A stretch of 64,000 nt of DNA from Escherichia phage EP75, in the sequence record MG748547. The stretch is one strand, 5' to 3'. The position numbers were made by a program, and so were the translations under genes. Of the stretch, positions 11,363 through 48,047 are shown piece after piece; the stretch's first letter is position 1; each line of letters starts with the position of its first letter. Under the pieces are notes generated by a model. The model did not search any database and had not been told where the DNA came from. It worked only from the letters and a program-made list of their open reading frames with translations.

Positions 11363-12103
11363 ATGGCTATGTATCTCGTATACCAAATTACCAATCTGAT
11401 AAACAATAAAATATATGTTGGGGTTCATAAAGGAACTCCAGATGATGGTTATATGGGTTCTGGCCGAGTTATAACAAGAGCGATATTGAAATATGGTGTT
11501 GAGAATTTTCGCAAAGATATATTGAAAGTTTGTAAAACATCAGAAGAAATGTATGAAGAAGAATTCAGGATAGTGAATCAAGAATTTATAGATAGAGATG
11601 ACACATATAATTTAACATGCGGTGGGCGTGGTTCATTTACGCACATAAATTCGGATCCATTAATCAGGGCCAACGCTTCGGAGAAGGCTCTCAAAACCCT
11701 AAGTTTAAAATCAAAAGACGAATTACAAAGAATTTACAAATCTAGGGGATTTCCTGGAGAAAGAAATTTTTGGTTTGGTAAAAACAGGTCCGGTGAAAAT
11801 AACTCAAGATTTGGCTATGTAATGGAACAAGAAACAAAGGACAAAATAAGAAATTCCAACAAGAAAAGAGTGGAATCCGGCCTCGTGGATTATTCTAATT
11901 GCAAAGGACCAATCACAAAAGAAGGGAAGAACGCAATATCCCAAGCGAACTCCAGAGAATTCAAATTTGTTAATCCAGAAGGAAATTTGGTCACAGTTAT
12001 CAACCTTTCCAAATTCTGTAAAGAAAATGAATTGAGCGAAGGATCTATGAGACATGTCCATAACGGCCGAAACATACAACATAAAGGTTGGAGGAAAGCA
12101 TAA
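11363..12103 (+). CDS. GIY-YIG homing endonuclease (Seg-like)
   Basis: N-terminal 'YLVYQITNL...KIYVGV' GIY-YIG motif; basic C-terminal DNA-binding region; sits between divergent structural genes. Confidence 0.75.
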   Translation: MAMYLVYQITNLINNKIYVGVHKGTPDDGYMGSGRVITRAILKYGVENFRKDILKVCKTSEEMYEEEFRIVNQEFIDRDDTYNLTCGGRGSFTHINSDPLIRANASEKALKTLSLKSKDELQRIYKSRGFPGERNFWFGKNRSGENNSRFGYVMEQETKDKIRNSNKKRVESGLVDYSNCKGPITKEGKNAISQANSREFKFVNPEGNLVTVINLSKFCKENELSEGSMRHVHNGRNIQHKGWRKA

Positions 12104-12723
12104 TGGCATCGTATTTACAAGGAAAATTTATTCCCAACAATCCTCAAAAATATGTCGGAGACGTAAAAGATATTGTGTTTCGATCCTCTTTAGAATTGGT
12201 TGCATTCAAATTCTGTGACATGAATCCTGCTATCGTGAAGTGGGGTTCGGAAACTTGTGTAATCCCTTACATATCTCCGGTTGATGGCCGCGCCCATCGT
12301 TATTTCATGGATTTGAAGGTTTGGACTCGTCGGCAGGATTCCGATGAATTACAAATTACTCTTATTGAAATAAAACCCAAAGACCAGATTAAAGAACCTC
12401 GCAAAACTAAAACGATGAAGGAATCAACATTCAATAATTCAATGCGCACTTGGTTGGTAAATCAGGCAAAGTGGACAGCAACTAAAGAACATTGTGCAAA
12501 GGTAGGTTGGAAATTCATTATCTGGACAGAAGAACATTTGGTGCCAGGTGAAGACCCAGAAGTTAAAAAACAATTTGCTCTTCGTTCTAAGAAAAAGCGC
12601 GAAGTCGAAATGGAAGATCGACGCCGCGCTCAAAGGATTAATGCGTTGAAAGAGCAAATGAAGAAGGAAACTGCTAATAAACAACCAACGCAATCGGAAG
12701 ATGATGGTTTGTTATTACCCTGA
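12103..12723 (+). CDS. head completion protein (T4 gp4-like)
   Basis: ATG at 12103 with GGAGGAAAG ribosome-binding site; 'YVGDVKDIVFRSSLE...VIPYISPVDG' resembles gp4 as recalled. Confidence 0.65.
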   Translation: MASYLQGKFIPNNPQKYVGDVKDIVFRSSLELVAFKFCDMNPAIVKWGSETCVIPYISPVDGRAHRYFMDLKVWTRRQDSDELQITLIEIKPKDQIKEPRKTKTMKESTFNNSMRTWLVNQAKWTATKEHCAKVGWKFIIWTEEHLVPGEDPEVKKQFALRSKKKREVEMEDRRRAQRINALKEQMKKETANKQPTQSEDDGLLLP

Positions 12724-16192: not shown

Positions 16193-16855
16193 CTATGATA
16201 ACTCATGGCGATGTCGAACACACGCAGGACAATCACAATTCTTTTTCAAAATTGGCAATTCACACCATGTCATTAAGTCATGTATTGGGGACATGTGATG
16301 ATAGAACCAAGATTTCTTGAGACTAATCAATGGATATAAAATTTCAATAGATCTTTCCCCGTCTCTGGTCATCATGTTGTATCCTTCAATAACTTTATTA
16401 AAGGCGGGTATCCAGTGTATTGCGTCATCGCCGTTAACATATGCCAAGATATACGTGGAAGGCAAGCCACTGCCTTTAAATTGCGTGTTTAATAACCATA
16501 TCGGGGCTTGTGCTAAACAAGCGCGAAAACCACCGTTCGGGACGTTGATGCTACTGATAGGTTCTTGATGATGTGTCCAACGATACATGAGAAGTGGGGC
16601 ATTTTTATTAATCCAGTTGTATATTTTATTCCTCGCCCAATTTTCGCGTTTAGATTTAAATTTATTATTTTCGAGGTGGCAATACACAGTATGAACTGAA
16701 TATCCTTTCGATAGCAACCAAATCAACATGTATGTGCTATCCACCCCACCAGACCAGAACAACGTCACTTCTTGATTATTCTGCGGCAATGGAGCATCCC
16801 CTTGAAGAACACGGTATACAAAATCACAATCAGATATTGAGACAACAATTTCCAT
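16193..16855 (-). CDS. QueC-like PP-loop ATP pyrophosphatase
   Basis: 'LFWSGGVDSTY' PP-loop and C-terminal 'CDCPACVRHR' zinc motif as in QueC. Confidence 0.55.
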   Translation of the reverse strand: MEIVVSISDCDFVYRVLQGDAPLPQNNQEVTLFWSGGVDSTYMLIWLLSKGYSVHTVYCHLENNKFKSKRENWARNKIYNWINKNAPLLMYRWTHHQEPISSINVPNGGFRACLAQAPIWLLNTQFKGSGLPSTYILAYVNGDDAIHWIPAFNKVIEGYNMMTRDGERSIEILYPLISLKKSWFYHHMSPIHDLMTWCELPILKKNCDCPACVRHRHELS

Positions 16856-18223: not shown

Positions 18224-18560
18224 CAGTTTCCCCTGCTTTCTCTAAAAGGAGTTTCAAAGGATATGTCCCACAAGCGGTGGCATACTCGACTTTGAAATAT
18301 GAATTATCGTTCATGGCGAAATTGCGATGTGGGAAATATTCCCCGTCATCCAACCCGCCTAATCCCCCGCCGACGCGATATTGTTTTAACTCGACTTCGC
18401 CGCCATAACGGAGTTGGGCATATAGGCCGATAGGAGCGCGAACGTAATGCTCCAGCCATACCCAATTTCCATCGTGTAAACGTGTAGGGATAAATGCAAA
18501 ACGCACCTTGGGATGAAGAACGGCTTTGGCGAGCATCTCTTCTGTTATTTCACGCTTCAT
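18216..18560 (-). CDS. hypothetical protein (114 aa)
   Basis: ORF in operon. Confidence 0.45.
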   Translation of the reverse strand: MKREITEEMLAKAVLHPKVRFAFIPTRLHDGNWVWLEHYVRAPIGLYAQLRYGGEVELKQYRVGGGLGGLDDGEYFPHRNFAMNDNSYFKVEYATACGTYPLKLLLEKAGETDV

Positions 18561-19177
18561 CCAATACCTTCCTCTTCGATGATATCTTCTTCACTAGCGA
18601 CGACAGAGATTCCGTAGTCTACCATCTGGGAAAGTTCTTGTAAATCTTGTTCAAACCCGTCACCCTGTCGGATATAAAAGACGGGTACGACACGACGCCT
18701 GGTATCTTCGAAGATAGTCTCCGCGATTTTATTAATCTGACTCACCACGTGAAACAGTTTTAATCCACCGATGCCACAGCCGATGGCGGGTAAACCAACA
18801 TAGACTGTTTCGTCAGTTTTTGCCTCAATGATATCGTGAACTTGTTCAAACATAATCTGAACTGAACTGATAATGGAAGGCATGCGTGCGTTAGGACCAG
18901 GGTAGAACTGAGTATACAAATTGAATCCCCAGACACCAGTGTCATGATCAAACGCATAGGACATGTTCCCCAAACGTTGTTCCGGACCACGTTCATCTAA
19001 TTGGTCGGCTCGGTAAATTTCTGGGAAATCTAATCGAACATGGTTGGCGATACCTGCGCCCATCACAGACCAACAATTTGCTCCATGAGCGAAAGCATTG
19101 ATGAGATTAAAACTCGTAGCGGCTTTCAGTAAATCGCCGTTTGTGATAACATATGTGGTCATGCGTAACGTCTCCAT
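18557..19177 (-). CDS. macro domain protein (ADP-ribose binding/hydrolase), putative
   Basis: 'VITNGDLL...INAFAHGAN..MGAGIA' and 'GLPAIGCGIGGL' resemble macro domain signature motifs. Confidence 0.55.
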   Translation of the reverse strand: METLRMTTYVITNGDLLKAATSFNLINAFAHGANCWSVMGAGIANHVRLDFPEIYRADQLDERGPEQRLGNMSYAFDHDTGVWGFNLYTQFYPGPNARMPSIISSVQIMFEQVHDIIEAKTDETVYVGLPAIGCGIGGLKLFHVVSQINKIAETIFEDTRRRVVPVFYIRQGDGFEQDLQELSQMVDYGISVVASEEDIIEEEGIG

Positions 19178-24452: not shown

Positions 24453-25031
24453 TTATAGACCAAATTTAGTGCGCCATTTTTCCACTTTGTGTTCTATGGC
24501 ATGTTCCACTTTAACGATCGTGTTGATATGGTTTTGATTATATCCACACGCCAATTTGGCAGTATTGCGTATCAGATTTGAAACCAGGTCCACCATATTA
24601 TCTTCTGAACGTTGAGGTTGGTTCAGTAAACGAGTGATGCGGCCTTTGTAATGATTAACCATCGCAAGATATTTGTCTATAGTTTCAACACCACTGCAGA
24701 ACCAATAATCCTCCAACGTATGTTGGCTGAGATCAGTTGTGTGATTGGCCGTAGCCAAAGCAAACACCATGGAGTCAAAGATTTCTTCTTTGGTCATAGA
24801 CCCATGTTGTTGAACTTGTTGATAATCCACAACATATAATAGATCCAGAGCCGAGATGATAACGTCCGCCACTTCACCGTTCAGGGGTTCGGATGCAGCG
24901 ATTCCATAAAGCACATCTGATAGTTCACAAGACTCTTCCACGAGTTTGCAATATACAAACACAGGAGAACGATTAGGATCGCGCTGGCTGAGTTCATATG
25001 ATGTGTTGAAGATAGTTTTTAGAAAATTCAT
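24453..25031 (-). CDS. MazG-like nucleoside triphosphate pyrophosphohydrolase, putative
   Basis: 'KLVEESCELSDVLYG...EVADVIISALDLL' resembles MazG/HisE EExxE...D helix motifs. Confidence 0.45.
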   Translation of the reverse strand: MNFLKTIFNTSYELSQRDPNRSPVFVYCKLVEESCELSDVLYGIAASEPLNGEVADVIISALDLLYVVDYQQVQQHGSMTKEEIFDSMVFALATANHTTDLSQHTLEDYWFCSGVETIDKYLAMVNHYKGRITRLLNQPQRSEDNMVDLVSNLIRNTAKLACGYNQNHINTIVKVEHAIEHKVEKWRTKFGL

Positions 25032-25528
25032 TTCAAATATCCTTCTAGACGGAAGCGGTTAATATGCTGTATGATAAAATCCATAGAGTTTTGAAAACTG
25101 TATTTCCCCTGATGCTCATATGCATGAATAAGGGGAAGACGGCTGTGGGCCAATTGGAATCTCAACTTGGATGGCATTGTCAGCAATTTTTGACTCGTCG
25201 CTGCGATAATGTCTCGTTTAAATTTGGGATCATCAGGGGACAATACAACGATGCGTGACTTGGCCAGGGTTTGTCCAAATTGCTTGGCGTCGTTCCCGTA
25301 AAGACTACGCAAGTCGTCGTGGCGATATTTTAGCCAATACCAGTAGCCTTCTATTGAGTTGAAATTACCATCAACAGTATCCATGGGATGGTATGCAAAA
25401 TGGGAAAGGAATCTGCCTAGTTCTGTGCGACTTCGACTGTATATGTTGTAATGGGTCTTACCTTCACTATCCGGCGTCATACGTTCTTTTGGAACATTGA
25501 GTAATGGGAGCATGATATAGGGTCTCAA
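25028..25528 (-). CDS. NADAR (YbiA-like) domain protein, putative; exact start uncertain
   Basis: 'FLSHFAYHP...DGNFNSIEGYWYWLKY' resembles YbiA 'FSNFA...DGKTWPTSEHYFQAQKF' as recalled. Confidence 0.45.
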   Translation of the reverse strand: MRPYIMLPLLNVPKERMTPDSEGKTHYNIYSRSRTELGRFLSHFAYHPMDTVDGNFNSIEGYWYWLKYRHDDLRSLYGNDAKQFGQTLAKSRIVVLSPDDPKFKRDIIAATSQKLLTMPSKLRFQLAHSRLPLIHAYEHQGKYSFQNSMDFIIQHINRFRLEGYLK

Positions 25529-25794
25529 ATCAAAATTGCTGTGTGTGTGTGTTAAATCAGATCTTTTTGTACGCTTTCAAAGCACTAATAACCGAGACGC
25601 CGCCAAATAGAACTAACAATATGAATCGTTCCATCCTGAAATCAGGAAGGGAAAGCAGTCCCACAAGGCTGTCTAAAGCAATCATGAACGTTACTCCAGT
25701 CAGCATGCCCAACTTAAAGGAGTTGGAACCTCTTTTGCAACGTAGCATAAATCACCTCCGATTCAAATGGGGAGTTCTCTCCCCACACAGATAT

Positions 25795-26304: not shown

Positions 26305-26370
26305 TTGGTATATCCTCAGTTAGGTTCCGCTCATGGGGAACGGGTCCATTATACACCCAATGCTGGAAAT

Positions 26371-26393
26371 GAAAAAGAGGCCGAAGCCTCTTT
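26371..26393 (-). terminator. intrinsic terminator
   Basis: GAGGC-CGAA-GCCTC hairpin with T-run on minus strand. Confidence 0.55.
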
Positions 26394-37970: not shown

Positions 37971-39206
37971 TCATCGTTTCAACAAAGACATGAGGTTTAC
38001 ACTGGTCGACTTCGGATTGTCCTCTATATTCCGGACGGGCATTTTCAGATTAGTGTAAACCTCAGATGGTTCCCAACGCGTACCCTGCTGCAGGTGCCAT
38101 ATATGTAGAGGAACACCCGTTTCAAAGAACACAGGCATCTTCCACTTCTGGACGCCAGGAACGTGCCCTGCAGGAGCTTTTTCGCACAACAGGGTATCTG
38201 GTAGCCAGAGGGAACGGGCTTCCCATAATGCCTTACAGGAGTACTCAGGCCAGATGCGTTCCATGTAGTCGATCTCATCCCAAGTACGCTCGGCATCCCA
38301 CCCGATGTAACGGGTATTCTTCAGACGGAAGAATTTCTTAAGCCAACAAGCACCGGAGGTCTCAAAGTTCAGACGATTGATGAACGTGATGTGGCCGAAC
38401 TCTTCAACGCATTCCTGAAACGCTTTCTCAAGGTCGTTTTCGAGTATATCACATTCTTCGTCTGTAATAGGACAACCGTTGATCTTTTTCTTCCCGTGCT
38501 TGGTCACCCAATCATCACGGTTGGATAAGAACGCCGCGCCGTTACGATTGGATTCGCTACCATCACGGTCACGCAACATGAAACCAGGGACGTCTATATC
38601 CCATATGTTACCGAAGACCATGTTCAGGGCTTCCAGGAAGTTCCATGCGCTCAGGCGACCGAAGTATTTCCATGACATCGCCGTATTCCACAGTTCAGTG
38701 AACTGGTCTTCCTTGGTAGTGCATTCCAACATCCAACGAAAAGAATCCATTTGGGTTTTACCACCCAACCAATCGATATAGGACTGAACGCACGGAATCA
38801 TCTTCGACTTACGATAACGACAATCTGTATCGAAGCGCATACGATCAAAGTTCAGGTTATACCAATCAGAAAATCGCTGAAACTCTTTCGGAGATTGTGG
38901 GGGTACAGGAAATTCACTGTAAATTGTCCATGGTCCAATCCCATTATAGCAACAACCCCACAAAAAGGCCATCCAAATCTTGCGCTCGATCTTCTCGAGC
39001 TGTGTGATGCCTTCTGTAACCTCTATGGCATAATCCATCAGACGGACTTGCTGGTTATGCTCTTCAGTGTAGGATAGCGCCTCCACCCATGCCTTGAGCA
39101 GGTACATGCGATTTTCTGGCTTACGATAATCTACTGCCAGATCAATCGGGTATTTCCATTTTTCAGGGGCTTTATACCCCTGCGGCATTTTAGAAATGTG
39201 TATCAT
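37971..39206 (-). CDS. hypothetical protein (411 aa), Trp/Cys-rich
   Basis: Large conserved-looking ORF upstream of kinase/HAD genes; no motif recognised. Confidence 0.55.
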   Translation of the reverse strand: MIHISKMPQGYKAPEKWKYPIDLAVDYRKPENRMYLLKAWVEALSYTEEHNQQVRLMDYAIEVTEGITQLEKIERKIWMAFLWGCCYNGIGPWTIYSEFPVPPQSPKEFQRFSDWYNLNFDRMRFDTDCRYRKSKMIPCVQSYIDWLGGKTQMDSFRWMLECTTKEDQFTELWNTAMSWKYFGRLSAWNFLEALNMVFGNIWDIDVPGFMLRDRDGSESNRNGAAFLSNRDDWVTKHGKKKINGCPITDEECDILENDLEKAFQECVEEFGHITFINRLNFETSGACWLKKFFRLKNTRYIGWDAERTWDEIDYMERIWPEYSCKALWEARSLWLPDTLLCEKAPAGHVPGVQKWKMPVFFETGVPLHIWHLQQGTRWEPSEVYTNLKMPVRNIEDNPKSTSVNLMSLLKR

Positions 39207-39962: not shown

Positions 39963-40868
39963 CTAACCCTTACTCAACAGGCCGAGAAGGGATACAGAGG
40001 ACTTTGTTACCTCTCCCTTGGCGCTCGCCTTGGTTTTAGATTTGGTCGCCTTCTCAGGGACTCGATGCGCTAGAGGATCATCCCCACCGACTTCACGCGT
40101 CATTGGGTCAGTTTCACAGAATCCGTAAAAATCTTTGATGTCCAGACCCATGGCGTGAAACTCACCACGCATTTGATGATGAATAGCGTTACCAATCACC
40201 CACAAAGGTGCATCAAACGGCATCATGGCTAATTCGCTATCATTTCCTGTTTTGAATTCTTGAGTGTTTGTAGACGATTGGCGATACAACACGTCTTGAC
40301 CGCTGTAATCATTGACCACCACTTCCCAACCCAGCGCCAGCATTTCGGCCTTCGACTTCTCAAACTCCTTGGAGTAAGATTCGTTGCGTGACCAGCCGGA
40401 ATCTCCCGCCTCTTTACCAGAACGCCCACGGATACGAGCGTCGTACTGGTAGCGGTCAGGGTATGCAAAGTACAGCAGTGCCAGTGATTCAATCGGATAG
40501 TTCTTGAACATCCATTCAGGACGCCATTTATCCGACAGCATGAGGGGTTCACCCTCGCACACCAAAGTGTAACCCTGAGCCAGCCAACCTTTGACCAGAT
40601 CACGGGCGATATCACCCGAGCCTGTGGCGGCGTGGATGGCGTCCATGGAAGTCCAGGAAGCCAGGCCGGATTTGTTAGACACAGTATACTGGCCAACGAA
40701 GATTAACTTCAGTTCTTCGAACTTCAGGCCGAATGGGCGCGTCTTGTCACCAATGGTGTAGGTGAGTTCAGTAGGGGTTAGGGTAGTGCGCAGCCATTCG
40801 ATGAACTGAACAACACGGGTGCCTTTACCCGTGCCAGAGGTTCCTTTCACTACAATTATTTTAGCCAT
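39963..40868 (-). CDS. P-loop kinase/NTPase
   Basis: N-terminal Walker A 'GTSGTGKGT' in a roughly 300-aa protein. Confidence 0.55.
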   Translation of the reverse strand: MAKIIVVKGTSGTGKGTRVVQFIEWLRTTLTPTELTYTIGDKTRPFGLKFEELKLIFVGQYTVSNKSGLASWTSMDAIHAATGSGDIARDLVKGWLAQGYTLVCEGEPLMLSDKWRPEWMFKNYPIESLALLYFAYPDRYQYDARIRGRSGKEAGDSGWSRNESYSKEFEKSKAEMLALGWEVVVNDYSGQDVLYRQSSTNTQEFKTGNDSELAMMPFDAPLWVIGNAIHHQMRGEFHAMGLDIKDFYGFCETDPMTREVGGDDPLAHRVPEKATKSKTKASAKGEVTKSSVSLLGLLSKG

Positions 40869-47548: not shown

Positions 47549-48007
47549 TTATTTCCCATCCCAAAAGTCGTCTTCATCGTCTACTTCATCAAACGCAGAA
47601 TCCAATTCTTCGTCAGAGTACTCTGGAAGGCGACCATTCTGTTTCAGATATTCAATCTCGTCATCTTCCAATTGAAGATCTGTTGCTATAAACAGCGCTC
47701 CAGTCTCTTCATCATGTTCAATGCTATAAGACGTATATTCAGAACCTTGAACTGTAATGATGATAGATGTCGGATCTTCTGGATCCACGTGGGCTTCAAA
47801 CGGGATACCGTCAATCGGAGCGTCTTCTAAGAATGTTGCAAGGGCTACGGCAGCGCGGACAACATCCGTACCCTGTACCGATGCATAAATTTCTTCTGCG
47901 CCCGTTTCCCCGCGCTCAAAGAATTCAATCGTTGTCCCGTCTTGAACCCCAGTCCAGATAGGCATATCGGCTGGTGTATCAGCTTCAAATAATTTTGAAA
48001 TTGGCAT
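47549..48007 (-). CDS. highly acidic hypothetical protein (152 aa)
   Basis: ORF with GAGGAAA ribosome-binding site; CCTAAATAT late-like motif upstream. Confidence 0.5.
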   Translation of the reverse strand: MPISKLFEADTPADMPIWTGVQDGTTIEFFERGETGAEEIYASVQGTDVVRAAVALATFLEDAPIDGIPFEAHVDPEDPTSIIITVQGSEYTSYSIEHDEETGALFIATDLQLEDDEIEYLKQNGRLPEYSDEELDSAFDEVDDEDDFWDGK

Positions 48008-48038: not shown

Positions 48039-48047
48039 ATATTTAGG
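48039..48047 (-). promoter_or_regulatory. late-promoter-like motif CCTAAATAT
   Basis: About 32 nt upstream of the 48007 start codon. Confidence 0.4.

Follow-up and report, generated by a model that had tools for sequence, protein, structure and literature searches.

Among the NADAR proteins encoded by phages, gp30.3 of T4 (AdfN) removes from DNA the ADP-ribose attached by DarT1, and is both necessary and sufficient for resistance to DarTG1 (PMC11257639; PMC11825919). Two further phage NADARs, AdfN(Bas32) and AdfN(Bas60), come from T5-like and Vequintavirinae phages outside the T-even group; they were found by Johannesman et al. with canonical NADAR domain models and likewise neutralise DarT1 (PMC11257639; PMC11825919), which shows that diverged phage NADARs keep the anti-DarT1 function. 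All phage NADARs assayed to date remove ADP-ribose from guanine and counter DarTG1, and guanine-ADP-ribose is hydrolysed by every NADAR family that has been assayed. Here we examine a 64,000-nucleotide stretch of Escherichia phage EP75 (record MG748547; hereafter the window), a Kuttervirus genome (Ackermannviridae, CBA120/Vi01-like), and within it a minus-strand gene that an earlier note had taken to be NADAR- or YbiA-like on the strength of a motif. That assignment was borne out by both fold and profile tests, and the product most likely functions as a DNA ADP-ribosyl-guanine glycohydrolase directed against DarT1-type defence, as does T4 AdfN.

Three key positions characterize NADAR active sites: a Glu, a Lys seven residues further on, and a third residue (PMC11543638; PMC11257639; PMC12945103). 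The Glu is E43 in PnNADAR (Phytophthora nicotianae), E88 in the E. coli C7 NADAR and E36 in T4 AdfN, and the corresponding Lys residues are K50, K95 and K43 (PMC11543638; PMC11257639). Function is lost in the AdfN variants E36A and K43A (PMC11257639), and the equivalent Glu and Lys are also required in the E. coli C7 enzyme (PMC11543638). The third position is occupied by Glu in YbiA and in general NADARs, by Asp in DarG1, and by His in phage NADARs (PMC11543638; PMC11257639; PMC12945103). Across the superfamily the Glu stands in an S-x-E-aromatic motif, and the residue at +7 is Lys or Arg.

The gene lies in an open reading frame (ORF) at 25028..25528 on the minus strand, given in the program-made ORF list as 166 codons from a TTG at 25528. 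The earlier note had described in it the motif FLSHF followed about 20 residues later by DGNFNSIEGYWYWLKY; both motifs are present in that order in what proved to be a conserved gene, and the gap between them is 8 residues (13 from start to start) rather than 20. The 14-residue spacing from LSHF to IEGYWY equals the spacing from FSNF to SEHYFQ in E. coli YbiA. The true start is probably the ATG at 25513, giving a single-domain protein of 161 residues without an N-terminal extension, because this is the annotated start in Salmonella phage dinky and because the Erwinia phage homologue P0026 retains the short N-terminal stretch while lacking the next internal Met. No clear Shine-Dalgarno sequence precedes this ATG. 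Residue numbers below are counted from the TTG at 25528, that is, in the 166-residue version. The features of the gene are as follows.

25028..25513, minus strand: NADAR-like coding sequence, 161 residues from the ATG at 25513.
25397..25411, minus strand: FLSHF (residues 40-44), the NADAR 'LSNF' motif, aligned with FSNF of YbiA and LSNF of AdfN.
25325..25372, minus strand: DGNFNSIEGYWYWLKY (residues 53-68), which holds E60 (25349..25351) and K67 (25328..25330).
25124..25126, minus strand: H135, in the strand 'LPLIH', placed in the third active-site column by alignment.

An AlphaFold2 model built from a 41-sequence alignment has a mean predicted local distance difference test (pLDDT) score of 95.7 and a predicted template-modelling (pTM) score of 0.88, and shows as a prediction the alpha+beta arrangement of NADAR proteins, with a helical core and small beta-hairpins at its flanks. 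When this model was compared with the PDB by Foldseek, the leading matches were all NADAR structures: YbiA (2B3W; E 5.8e-4, TM 0.60), 8BAU (the Phytophthora NADAR with ADP-ribose) and 8BAT (the DarG1 antitoxin structure of the Geobacter lovleyi NADAR) at probabilities of 0.99-1.00, every other match having E>3. Against BFVD, a set of predicted viral structures, the protein's own family came first (uncharacterised phage proteins, some of them fused to DprA/SLOG-like domains), followed by dozens of 'NADAR domain-containing' proteins from giant viruses as well as phages, each with a probability of 1.00. We regard membership of the protein in the NADAR fold superfamily as close to certain.

PF08719 (NADAR; gathering threshold 35.1 bits), PF08010 (Phage_30_3; 36 bits) and TIGR02464 were all silent for the protein, for which a Pfam scan gave no match even at E<=10 and an NCBIfam scan gave none; a PHROGs scan returned solely phrog_652, of 'unknown function'. 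The earlier note had held that the lack of a NADAR profile hit would refute the assignment. Formally such a lack is what was found for the protein itself, yet this yardstick is too strict, because relatives of the protein give sub-threshold matches to all three models and the predicted fold matches NADAR structures alone. Below the curated cut-offs, PF08010 matched 18 of 79 relatives, PF08719 5 of 79 (best E 0.012) and TIGR02464 7 of 41; the highest PF08010 score seen, in P0116, was 27 bits. The family thus forms a branch of its own within the NADAR superfamily, one that no curated model covers.

Profiles made from the family itself were more sensitive. A first profile (A1, 41 sequences) gave only spurious weak matches in the PDB (Rrp17, ATG12), and a deeper one (A2, 79 sequences no more than 50% identical to one another) was needed. 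Among 177,635 PDB sequences the top match of A2 was 8BAU_A (E 0.0042), and PnNADAR was the sole PDB sequence found by the family hidden Markov model; the alignment pairs LSNF with LSNF, SxEGYWY with SSEQYF and AKxxGR with AKKLGR. In profile comparisons by hhalign, A2 matched YbiA at 93.4% (E 2.4e-7, 97 columns) and T4 gp30.3 at 90.8% (E 1.2e-6), and in a local hmmsearch the two scored 18.6 and 16.7 bits. At the level of sequence, homology to characterised NADARs is statistically supported.

By alignment, each of the three NADAR active-site positions has a counterpart in the protein, namely E60, K67 and H135. BLASTP pairs E60 and K67 with E36 and K43 of AdfN, and in a small MAFFT alignment the same two residues stand in the Glu and Lys columns of YbiA and AdfN, with H135 in the column of YbiA E125. 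H135 was placed both by sequence alignment and by a matching helix-helix-strand pattern, and would represent the state typical of phage NADARs at the position that is Glu125 in YbiA and PnNADAR. E60 is invariant (79/79 sequences) and H135 nearly so (78/79), and K67 lies at Glu+7; together with K82, K114 and R74, E60 and H135 are invariant or close to it among proteins that are 25-40% identical. At the variable position of FLSHF, 70 of the 79 relatives have N, and the Ackermannviridae subgroup has H.

The closest known parallel is T4 AdfN (PF08010). Like the Kuttervirus protein, AdfN is a stand-alone protein of about 150-160 residues that has nothing beyond the NADAR core, its gene lies among those for DNA metabolism in a large lytic myovirus, it has an LSNF-type motif, Glu with Lys at +7 (E36/K43 against E60/K67) and His at the third position, and it lacks the D-x2-W-G segment. 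Judged by its sequence, the Kuttervirus protein thus shows both marks of phage NADARs of the AdfN kind, a core-only architecture and a third catalytic position at which His has replaced the acidic residue. It differs from AdfN in that identity is about 24-30% and confined to the N-terminal half, in scoring nothing against PF08010 and having a signature of its own, and in its setting, since Kuttervirus DNA contains modified thymidine where that of T4 contains hydroxymethyl-cytosine. AdfN(Bas32) and AdfN(Bas60) are likewise orphan NADARs borne by phages, but the canonical models that found them miss the Kuttervirus protein. A link to AdfN(Bas60) through the 24%-identical homologue in Yersinia phage GN1 was considered and dropped: two tblastn searches with family members returned no Vequintavirinae or T5-like phage among the approximately 40 matches listed for each, and no such link is therefore claimed.

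Other characterised NADARs are more distant. E. coli YbiA (2B3W; TIGR02464, riboflavin-intermediate N-glycosidase) is 14-15% identical, and none of the features that define its subfamily, Glu125, the D-x2-W-G segment and a score above the TIGR02464 cut-off, is found in the Kuttervirus protein, which has His at the third position and no riboflavin context in the phage. The DarG1 NADAR antitoxins (Geobacter lovleyi 8BAT; E. coli C7) have an N-terminal extension and Asp at the third position and adjoin darT1, none of which holds for the Kuttervirus protein. In PnNADAR (8BAU), the ADP-ribose contacts E43, K50 and E125 align with E60, K67 and H135, whereas no clear equivalent is seen for R93, D130 and W133, R93 being aligned with the conserved F103.

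The ORF represents a genuine gene, not a reading frame that arose by chance. Its product is 99.4% identical to those of Salmonella phages dinky, STP55 and S8 and 96.5% identical to CBA120 orf012, and by tblastn the gene is present in 528 phage records, in 391 of them across at least 80% of its length. The protein also turns up, at 99.4% identity, in record OR844942.1, 'Enterococcus phage Efm 3-10' (111 kb, unannotated), which suggests that this record is mislabelled or contaminated. A word-seeded search found 61 relatives, and an exhaustive profile search found 1,922 cluster representatives at E<=1e-3 and 500 at E<=1e-30; the resulting family size of about 1,900 counts clusters at 50% identity, most of which are metagenomic. 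The family alignment has 24 invariant columns and the signature HINxYS, EGYWYW and LPxxHYY.

In long relatives the family domain is fused to Macro, YpsA/SLOG, DUF4326, calcineurin-like phosphoesterase and PD-(D/E)XK domains. Macro, SLOG, DUF4326 and NADAR form the domain set of the viral NAD+/ADP-ribose network described by Iyer et al. (2022). One metagenomic relative, P0116 (1415 residues, polyvalent-type), holds a canonical NADAR domain above the Pfam cut-off at residues 10-143 as well as the family domain (about residues 550-695) and DUF4326, which suggests that the two NADAR-type domains in this chain have different specificities.

The gene order around the locus (rIIA, rIIB, ..., histone-like, small membrane protein, NADAR-like, MazG-like, topoisomerase II) is shared with CBA120 and dinky. 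The elements nearest to the gene are these.

24453..25031, minus strand: MazG-like pyrophosphatase (phrog_1247), directly downstream of the NADAR-like gene.
25028..25031, minus strand: ATGA overlap between the TGA stop of the NADAR-like gene and the ATG of the MazG-like gene, seen in the sequence and the ORFs.
26348..26393, minus strand: terminator-like hairpin and, after it, the best-matching sigma-70-like site in this region (10 of 12 matches in a consensus scan), upstream of the histone-like gene.

The ATGA overlap suggests that the NADAR-like and MazG-like genes are translationally coupled. The hairpin and promoter-like site upstream of the histone-like gene could possibly mark the start of a unit comprising the genes for the histone-like protein, a 63-residue membrane protein (the upstream neighbour of the NADAR-like gene), the NADAR-like protein, the MazG-like enzyme and topoisomerase II, so that the NADAR-like gene is probably co-transcribed with genes that handle DNA. 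A (TG)6/(CA)6 dinucleotide run (25540..25553) falls within the 28 bases that separate the NADAR-like ORF from the small membrane-protein gene. In distant phages the gene lies within replication or nucleotide-metabolism modules: on unrelated phage contigs the homologue stands beside genes for family-B DNA polymerase, ERF, PD-(D/E)XK nuclease, single-strand binding protein, anaerobic ribonucleotide reductase and exonuclease, in Serratia phage Moabite it is just downstream of the dUTPase gene, and in Vibrio phage K356 it adjoins NrdD/NrdG.

From the fold, the active-site residues and this context we infer catalytic activity, a guanine-ADP-ribose substrate and an anti-DarT1 role in vivo. We hypothesize that a stand-alone, highly diverged NADAR-fold enzyme would be produced early or in mid-infection, together with the histone-like protein, the MazG-like pyrophosphatase and topoisomerase II; that it would bind ADP-ribose attached to a DNA base (guanine N2 in the known NADAR substrate), with E60 and H135 flanking the distal ribose and K67 holding the diphosphate; that it would hydrolyse the N-glycosidic bond between ribose and base; and that the phage genome, freed of ADP-ribose placed by a host DarT1-type enzyme, could continue to replicate. 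Taken as a whole, this chain, in which the gene serves as a counter-defence NADAR clearing DarT1-type DNA ADP-ribosylation, seems to us modestly probable.

Several observations weigh against it. The protein passes no curated NADAR model. K67 is present in 5 of 79 sequences, the closest Ackermannviridae relatives only, and is mostly replaced by G, L or S elsewhere, so that the phosphate-binding arrangement of the family would appear to be different or shifted. In the MAFFT alignment the canonical D-x2-W-G segment, which in PnNADAR touches ADP-ribose through D130 and W133 (PMC11543638), is absent. The equivalence of H135 to the catalytic Glu comes from alignment and not from a three-dimensional superposition. 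Neither T4 AdfN nor YbiA rescued uninfected cells from DarT1 toxicity, and activity in vitro is therefore no guarantee of a role in vivo. According to Iyer et al. (2022), phage NADARs act chiefly on soluble derivatives of ADP-ribose, and the co-occurrence of the family domain with a canonical NADAR in P0116 suggests a different specificity.

The last two of these points lead to the alternative that survives best, namely that the protein degrades a soluble molecule derived from ADP-ribose (a signal or toxin of a TIR, SIR2 or ADP-ribosyltransferase (ART) defence, or a by-product of RNA repair) and not a DNA adduct. Iyer et al. (2022) proposed such a role for the majority of the NADAR, Macro and SLOG domains of phages, it would suit a family that is fused to SLOG and DUF4326, predicted processors of small ADP-ribose derivatives, and a distinct substrate is also what the pairing in P0116 suggests. 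It has to be set against the finding that all NADARs assayed since 2023, three phage ones included, hydrolyse guanine-ADP-ribose on nucleic acid, that riboflavin intermediates are the sole soluble NADAR substrates to have been demonstrated, and that the neighbours of the gene, in Kuttervirus as in distant phages, handle DNA; on this evidence we consider a soluble substrate unlikely.

The replacement of active-site elements bears on a second alternative, a non-catalytic binder or decoy that recognises an ADP-ribosylated component of a host defence. A phage NADAR-like inhibitor of Retron-Eco1 was reported in 2024 to need no enzymatic activity, the canonical Lys has been lost in most of the family, and D-x2-W-G is missing. 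However, the near-invariance of the polar site residues (E60, H135, K82, K114, R74) is what would be expected of an enzyme, and the Kuttervirus protein itself retains the canonical Glu and Lys, so a purely binding role strikes us as improbable.

A third alternative starts from the genomic setting, which includes the following pair of genes.

37971..39206 and 39963..40868, both minus strand: amino-acid:DNA transferase (PF18724, E 2.5e-57) and 5-hydroxymethyl-deoxyuridine (5-hmdU) DNA kinase (PF18747, E 7e-150), respectively.

These genes are the makers of the hypermodified thymidine of ViI-like phages. Their presence, the ATGA overlap with the MazG-like gene, the position of the homologues near dUTPase in Moabite and beside NrdD/NrdG in K356, and the annotation of relatives as 'N-glycosidase' would all fit a YbiA-like housekeeping N-glycosidase that, with the coupled MazG-like enzyme, clears nucleotides or intermediates that are aberrant or unwanted, for instance in the thymidine hypermodification pathway. 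We give this little credence: the Glu that defines YbiA is His here and the TIGR02464 cut-off is missed, the family is common in phages that lack hypermodification genes, its fusions are to Macro, SLOG and DUF4326 and none is to a nucleotide-metabolism domain, and the 'N-glycosidase' label was merely transferred from the fold match to YbiA.

The last alternative involves an ART-like gene of the phage's own.

48043..48492, minus strand: small ART-like protein (ART-PolyVal/DUF3990) of 149 residues, 23 kb from the NADAR-like gene.

That the NADAR-like protein reverses or limits ADP-ribosylation by this protein, for self-immunity or regulation as in the YarT-YbiA toxin-antitoxin pair, has in its favour the shared genome and the precedent of a YbiA-type NADAR acting as antitoxin to a non-DarT ART (PMC11125620), but is very improbable given that the two genes lie 23 kb apart in separate gene blocks, that the ART-like gene has a neighbour of its own, an acidic 152-residue ORF, and that many phage contigs have a member of the NADAR-like family without an ART in the vicinity. 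Each of these four alternatives is less well supported than hydrolysis of DarT1-type ADP-ribose from phage DNA.

The earlier note had counted three ADP-ribosylation-related functions in the 64 kb, and this count stands. The ART-like gene scores above the Pfam cut-offs, at 42.3 bits for PF18760 (cut-off 31.2) and 32.7 bits for PF13151 (cut-off 32.2), and the third function belongs to a gene in the same leftward block as the NADAR-like gene.

18557..19177, minus strand: Tk.4-like macrodomain protein of 206 residues, 6 kb downstream of the NADAR-like gene.

This gene was missed by Pfam and PHROG scans of about 50 ORFs and by a motif search, and was revealed only by phmmer against the PDB, where its product matches 5M3I (E 1e-4), 7OMU and 5M31; 5M3I and 5M31 are DarG macrodomains, and 7OMU is, by name only, a 'Macro domain-containing protein'. 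It has no Pfam match and is labelled 'phosphatase' by PHROGs, it is 28% identical to PhiKZ gp104 (AdfM, a phage anti-DarT2 macrodomain; pairwise E 1e-7), and it has been listed as a 'putative ADP-ribose binding protein' (PMC10892097 Table 5). Its 'YPGP' aligns with 'FPTK', the segment that carries the catalytic Lys in DarG and TARG1, and it may thus lack that Lys. With a NADAR-like gene and a DarG-like macrodomain gene, the phage carries as orphans, within one leftward block, the two types of antitoxin domain known from DarG.

The hypermodified thymidine of these phages may affect which ADP-ribose adducts can arise and which substrate the NADAR-like protein prefers. Since canonical NADAR, Macro and SLOG/DUF4326 domains share polypeptides with the HINxYS/EGYWYW/LPxxHYY clade, and since the phosphate-binding Lys and D-x2-W-G are replaced, this clade can be seen as a distinct NADAR branch that may have a substrate specificity of its own; in Kuttervirus, with a macrodomain 6 kb away, it might form part of a two-enzyme kit that clears guanine- and thymine-type (or unknown) adducts from DNA containing hypermodified thymidine. 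We offer this extension tentatively, as a minority possibility. The same early block holds a QueC-like (7-cyano-7-deazaguanine synthase-like) gene (16193..16855, minus strand), annotated in CBA120 and dinky, and a guanine modification, if present in the phage, would be relevant for an enzyme acting on guanine adducts.

The likeness of this gene family to YbiA has been noted before. For the Moabite homologue the annotation reads 'N-glycosidase; HHPred match to 2B3W with 98 probability', and a 2024 study of Vi01-like phages reported Shigella phage ChubbyThor gp49 as an HHpred match to 'ybiA' (0.999) and, in another Vi01-like phage, an 'N-glycosidase' between the MazG-like ('viral tegument-like') gene and a hypothetical gene that follows the histone-like gene (PMC10892097 Table S2). 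Neither the Moabite annotation nor PMC10892097 ties the gene to DNA de-ADP-ribosylation or DarT; in most phage records examined, including those of CBA120 and dinky, its product is a 'hypothetical protein', and a literature search for NADAR and Ackermannviridae returned papers that mention 'NADAR' once apiece, none of which by title or abstract concerns NADAR enzymes. The concept itself has been published: with the mechanism established for T4 AdfN and a YbiA match of relatives on file, conceptually little is added. The identification carries the 'orphan antitoxin' idea of counter-defence beyond T-even phages, to a further major family of large lytic phages. Phages of the Ackermannviridae (Vi01- and CBA120-like) see wide use in biocontrol and therapy directed at Salmonella, E. 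coli O157 and Klebsiella, and a NADAR identity provides a testable reason why they might resist DarTG1-type defence. In addition, a large NADAR-related family has been left unannotated by Pfam, NCBIfam and PHROG, and a dedicated profile would annotate about 1,900 protein clusters.

Some minor observations concern the other genes of the window. In the ART-like protein, candidate H-Y-E residues lie in LYHGS, GFYLT and EEMVVF. The very acidic 152-residue ORF beside it (47549..48007, minus strand; phrog_3852, unknown function) begins 35 bases downstream; it was considered as a macro domain and rejected, being rich in Asp and Glu and without macro motifs, and could be an inhibitor, an immunity partner or a DNA mimic. 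Finally, an ORF with a TnsA-like endonuclease N-terminal domain (12088..12723, plus strand; PF08722, E 1e-16) lies between the head-completion and membrane-flanked-domain genes, at a spot where phage dinky has only about 210 bp, which points to the insertion of a mobile or homing endonuclease.

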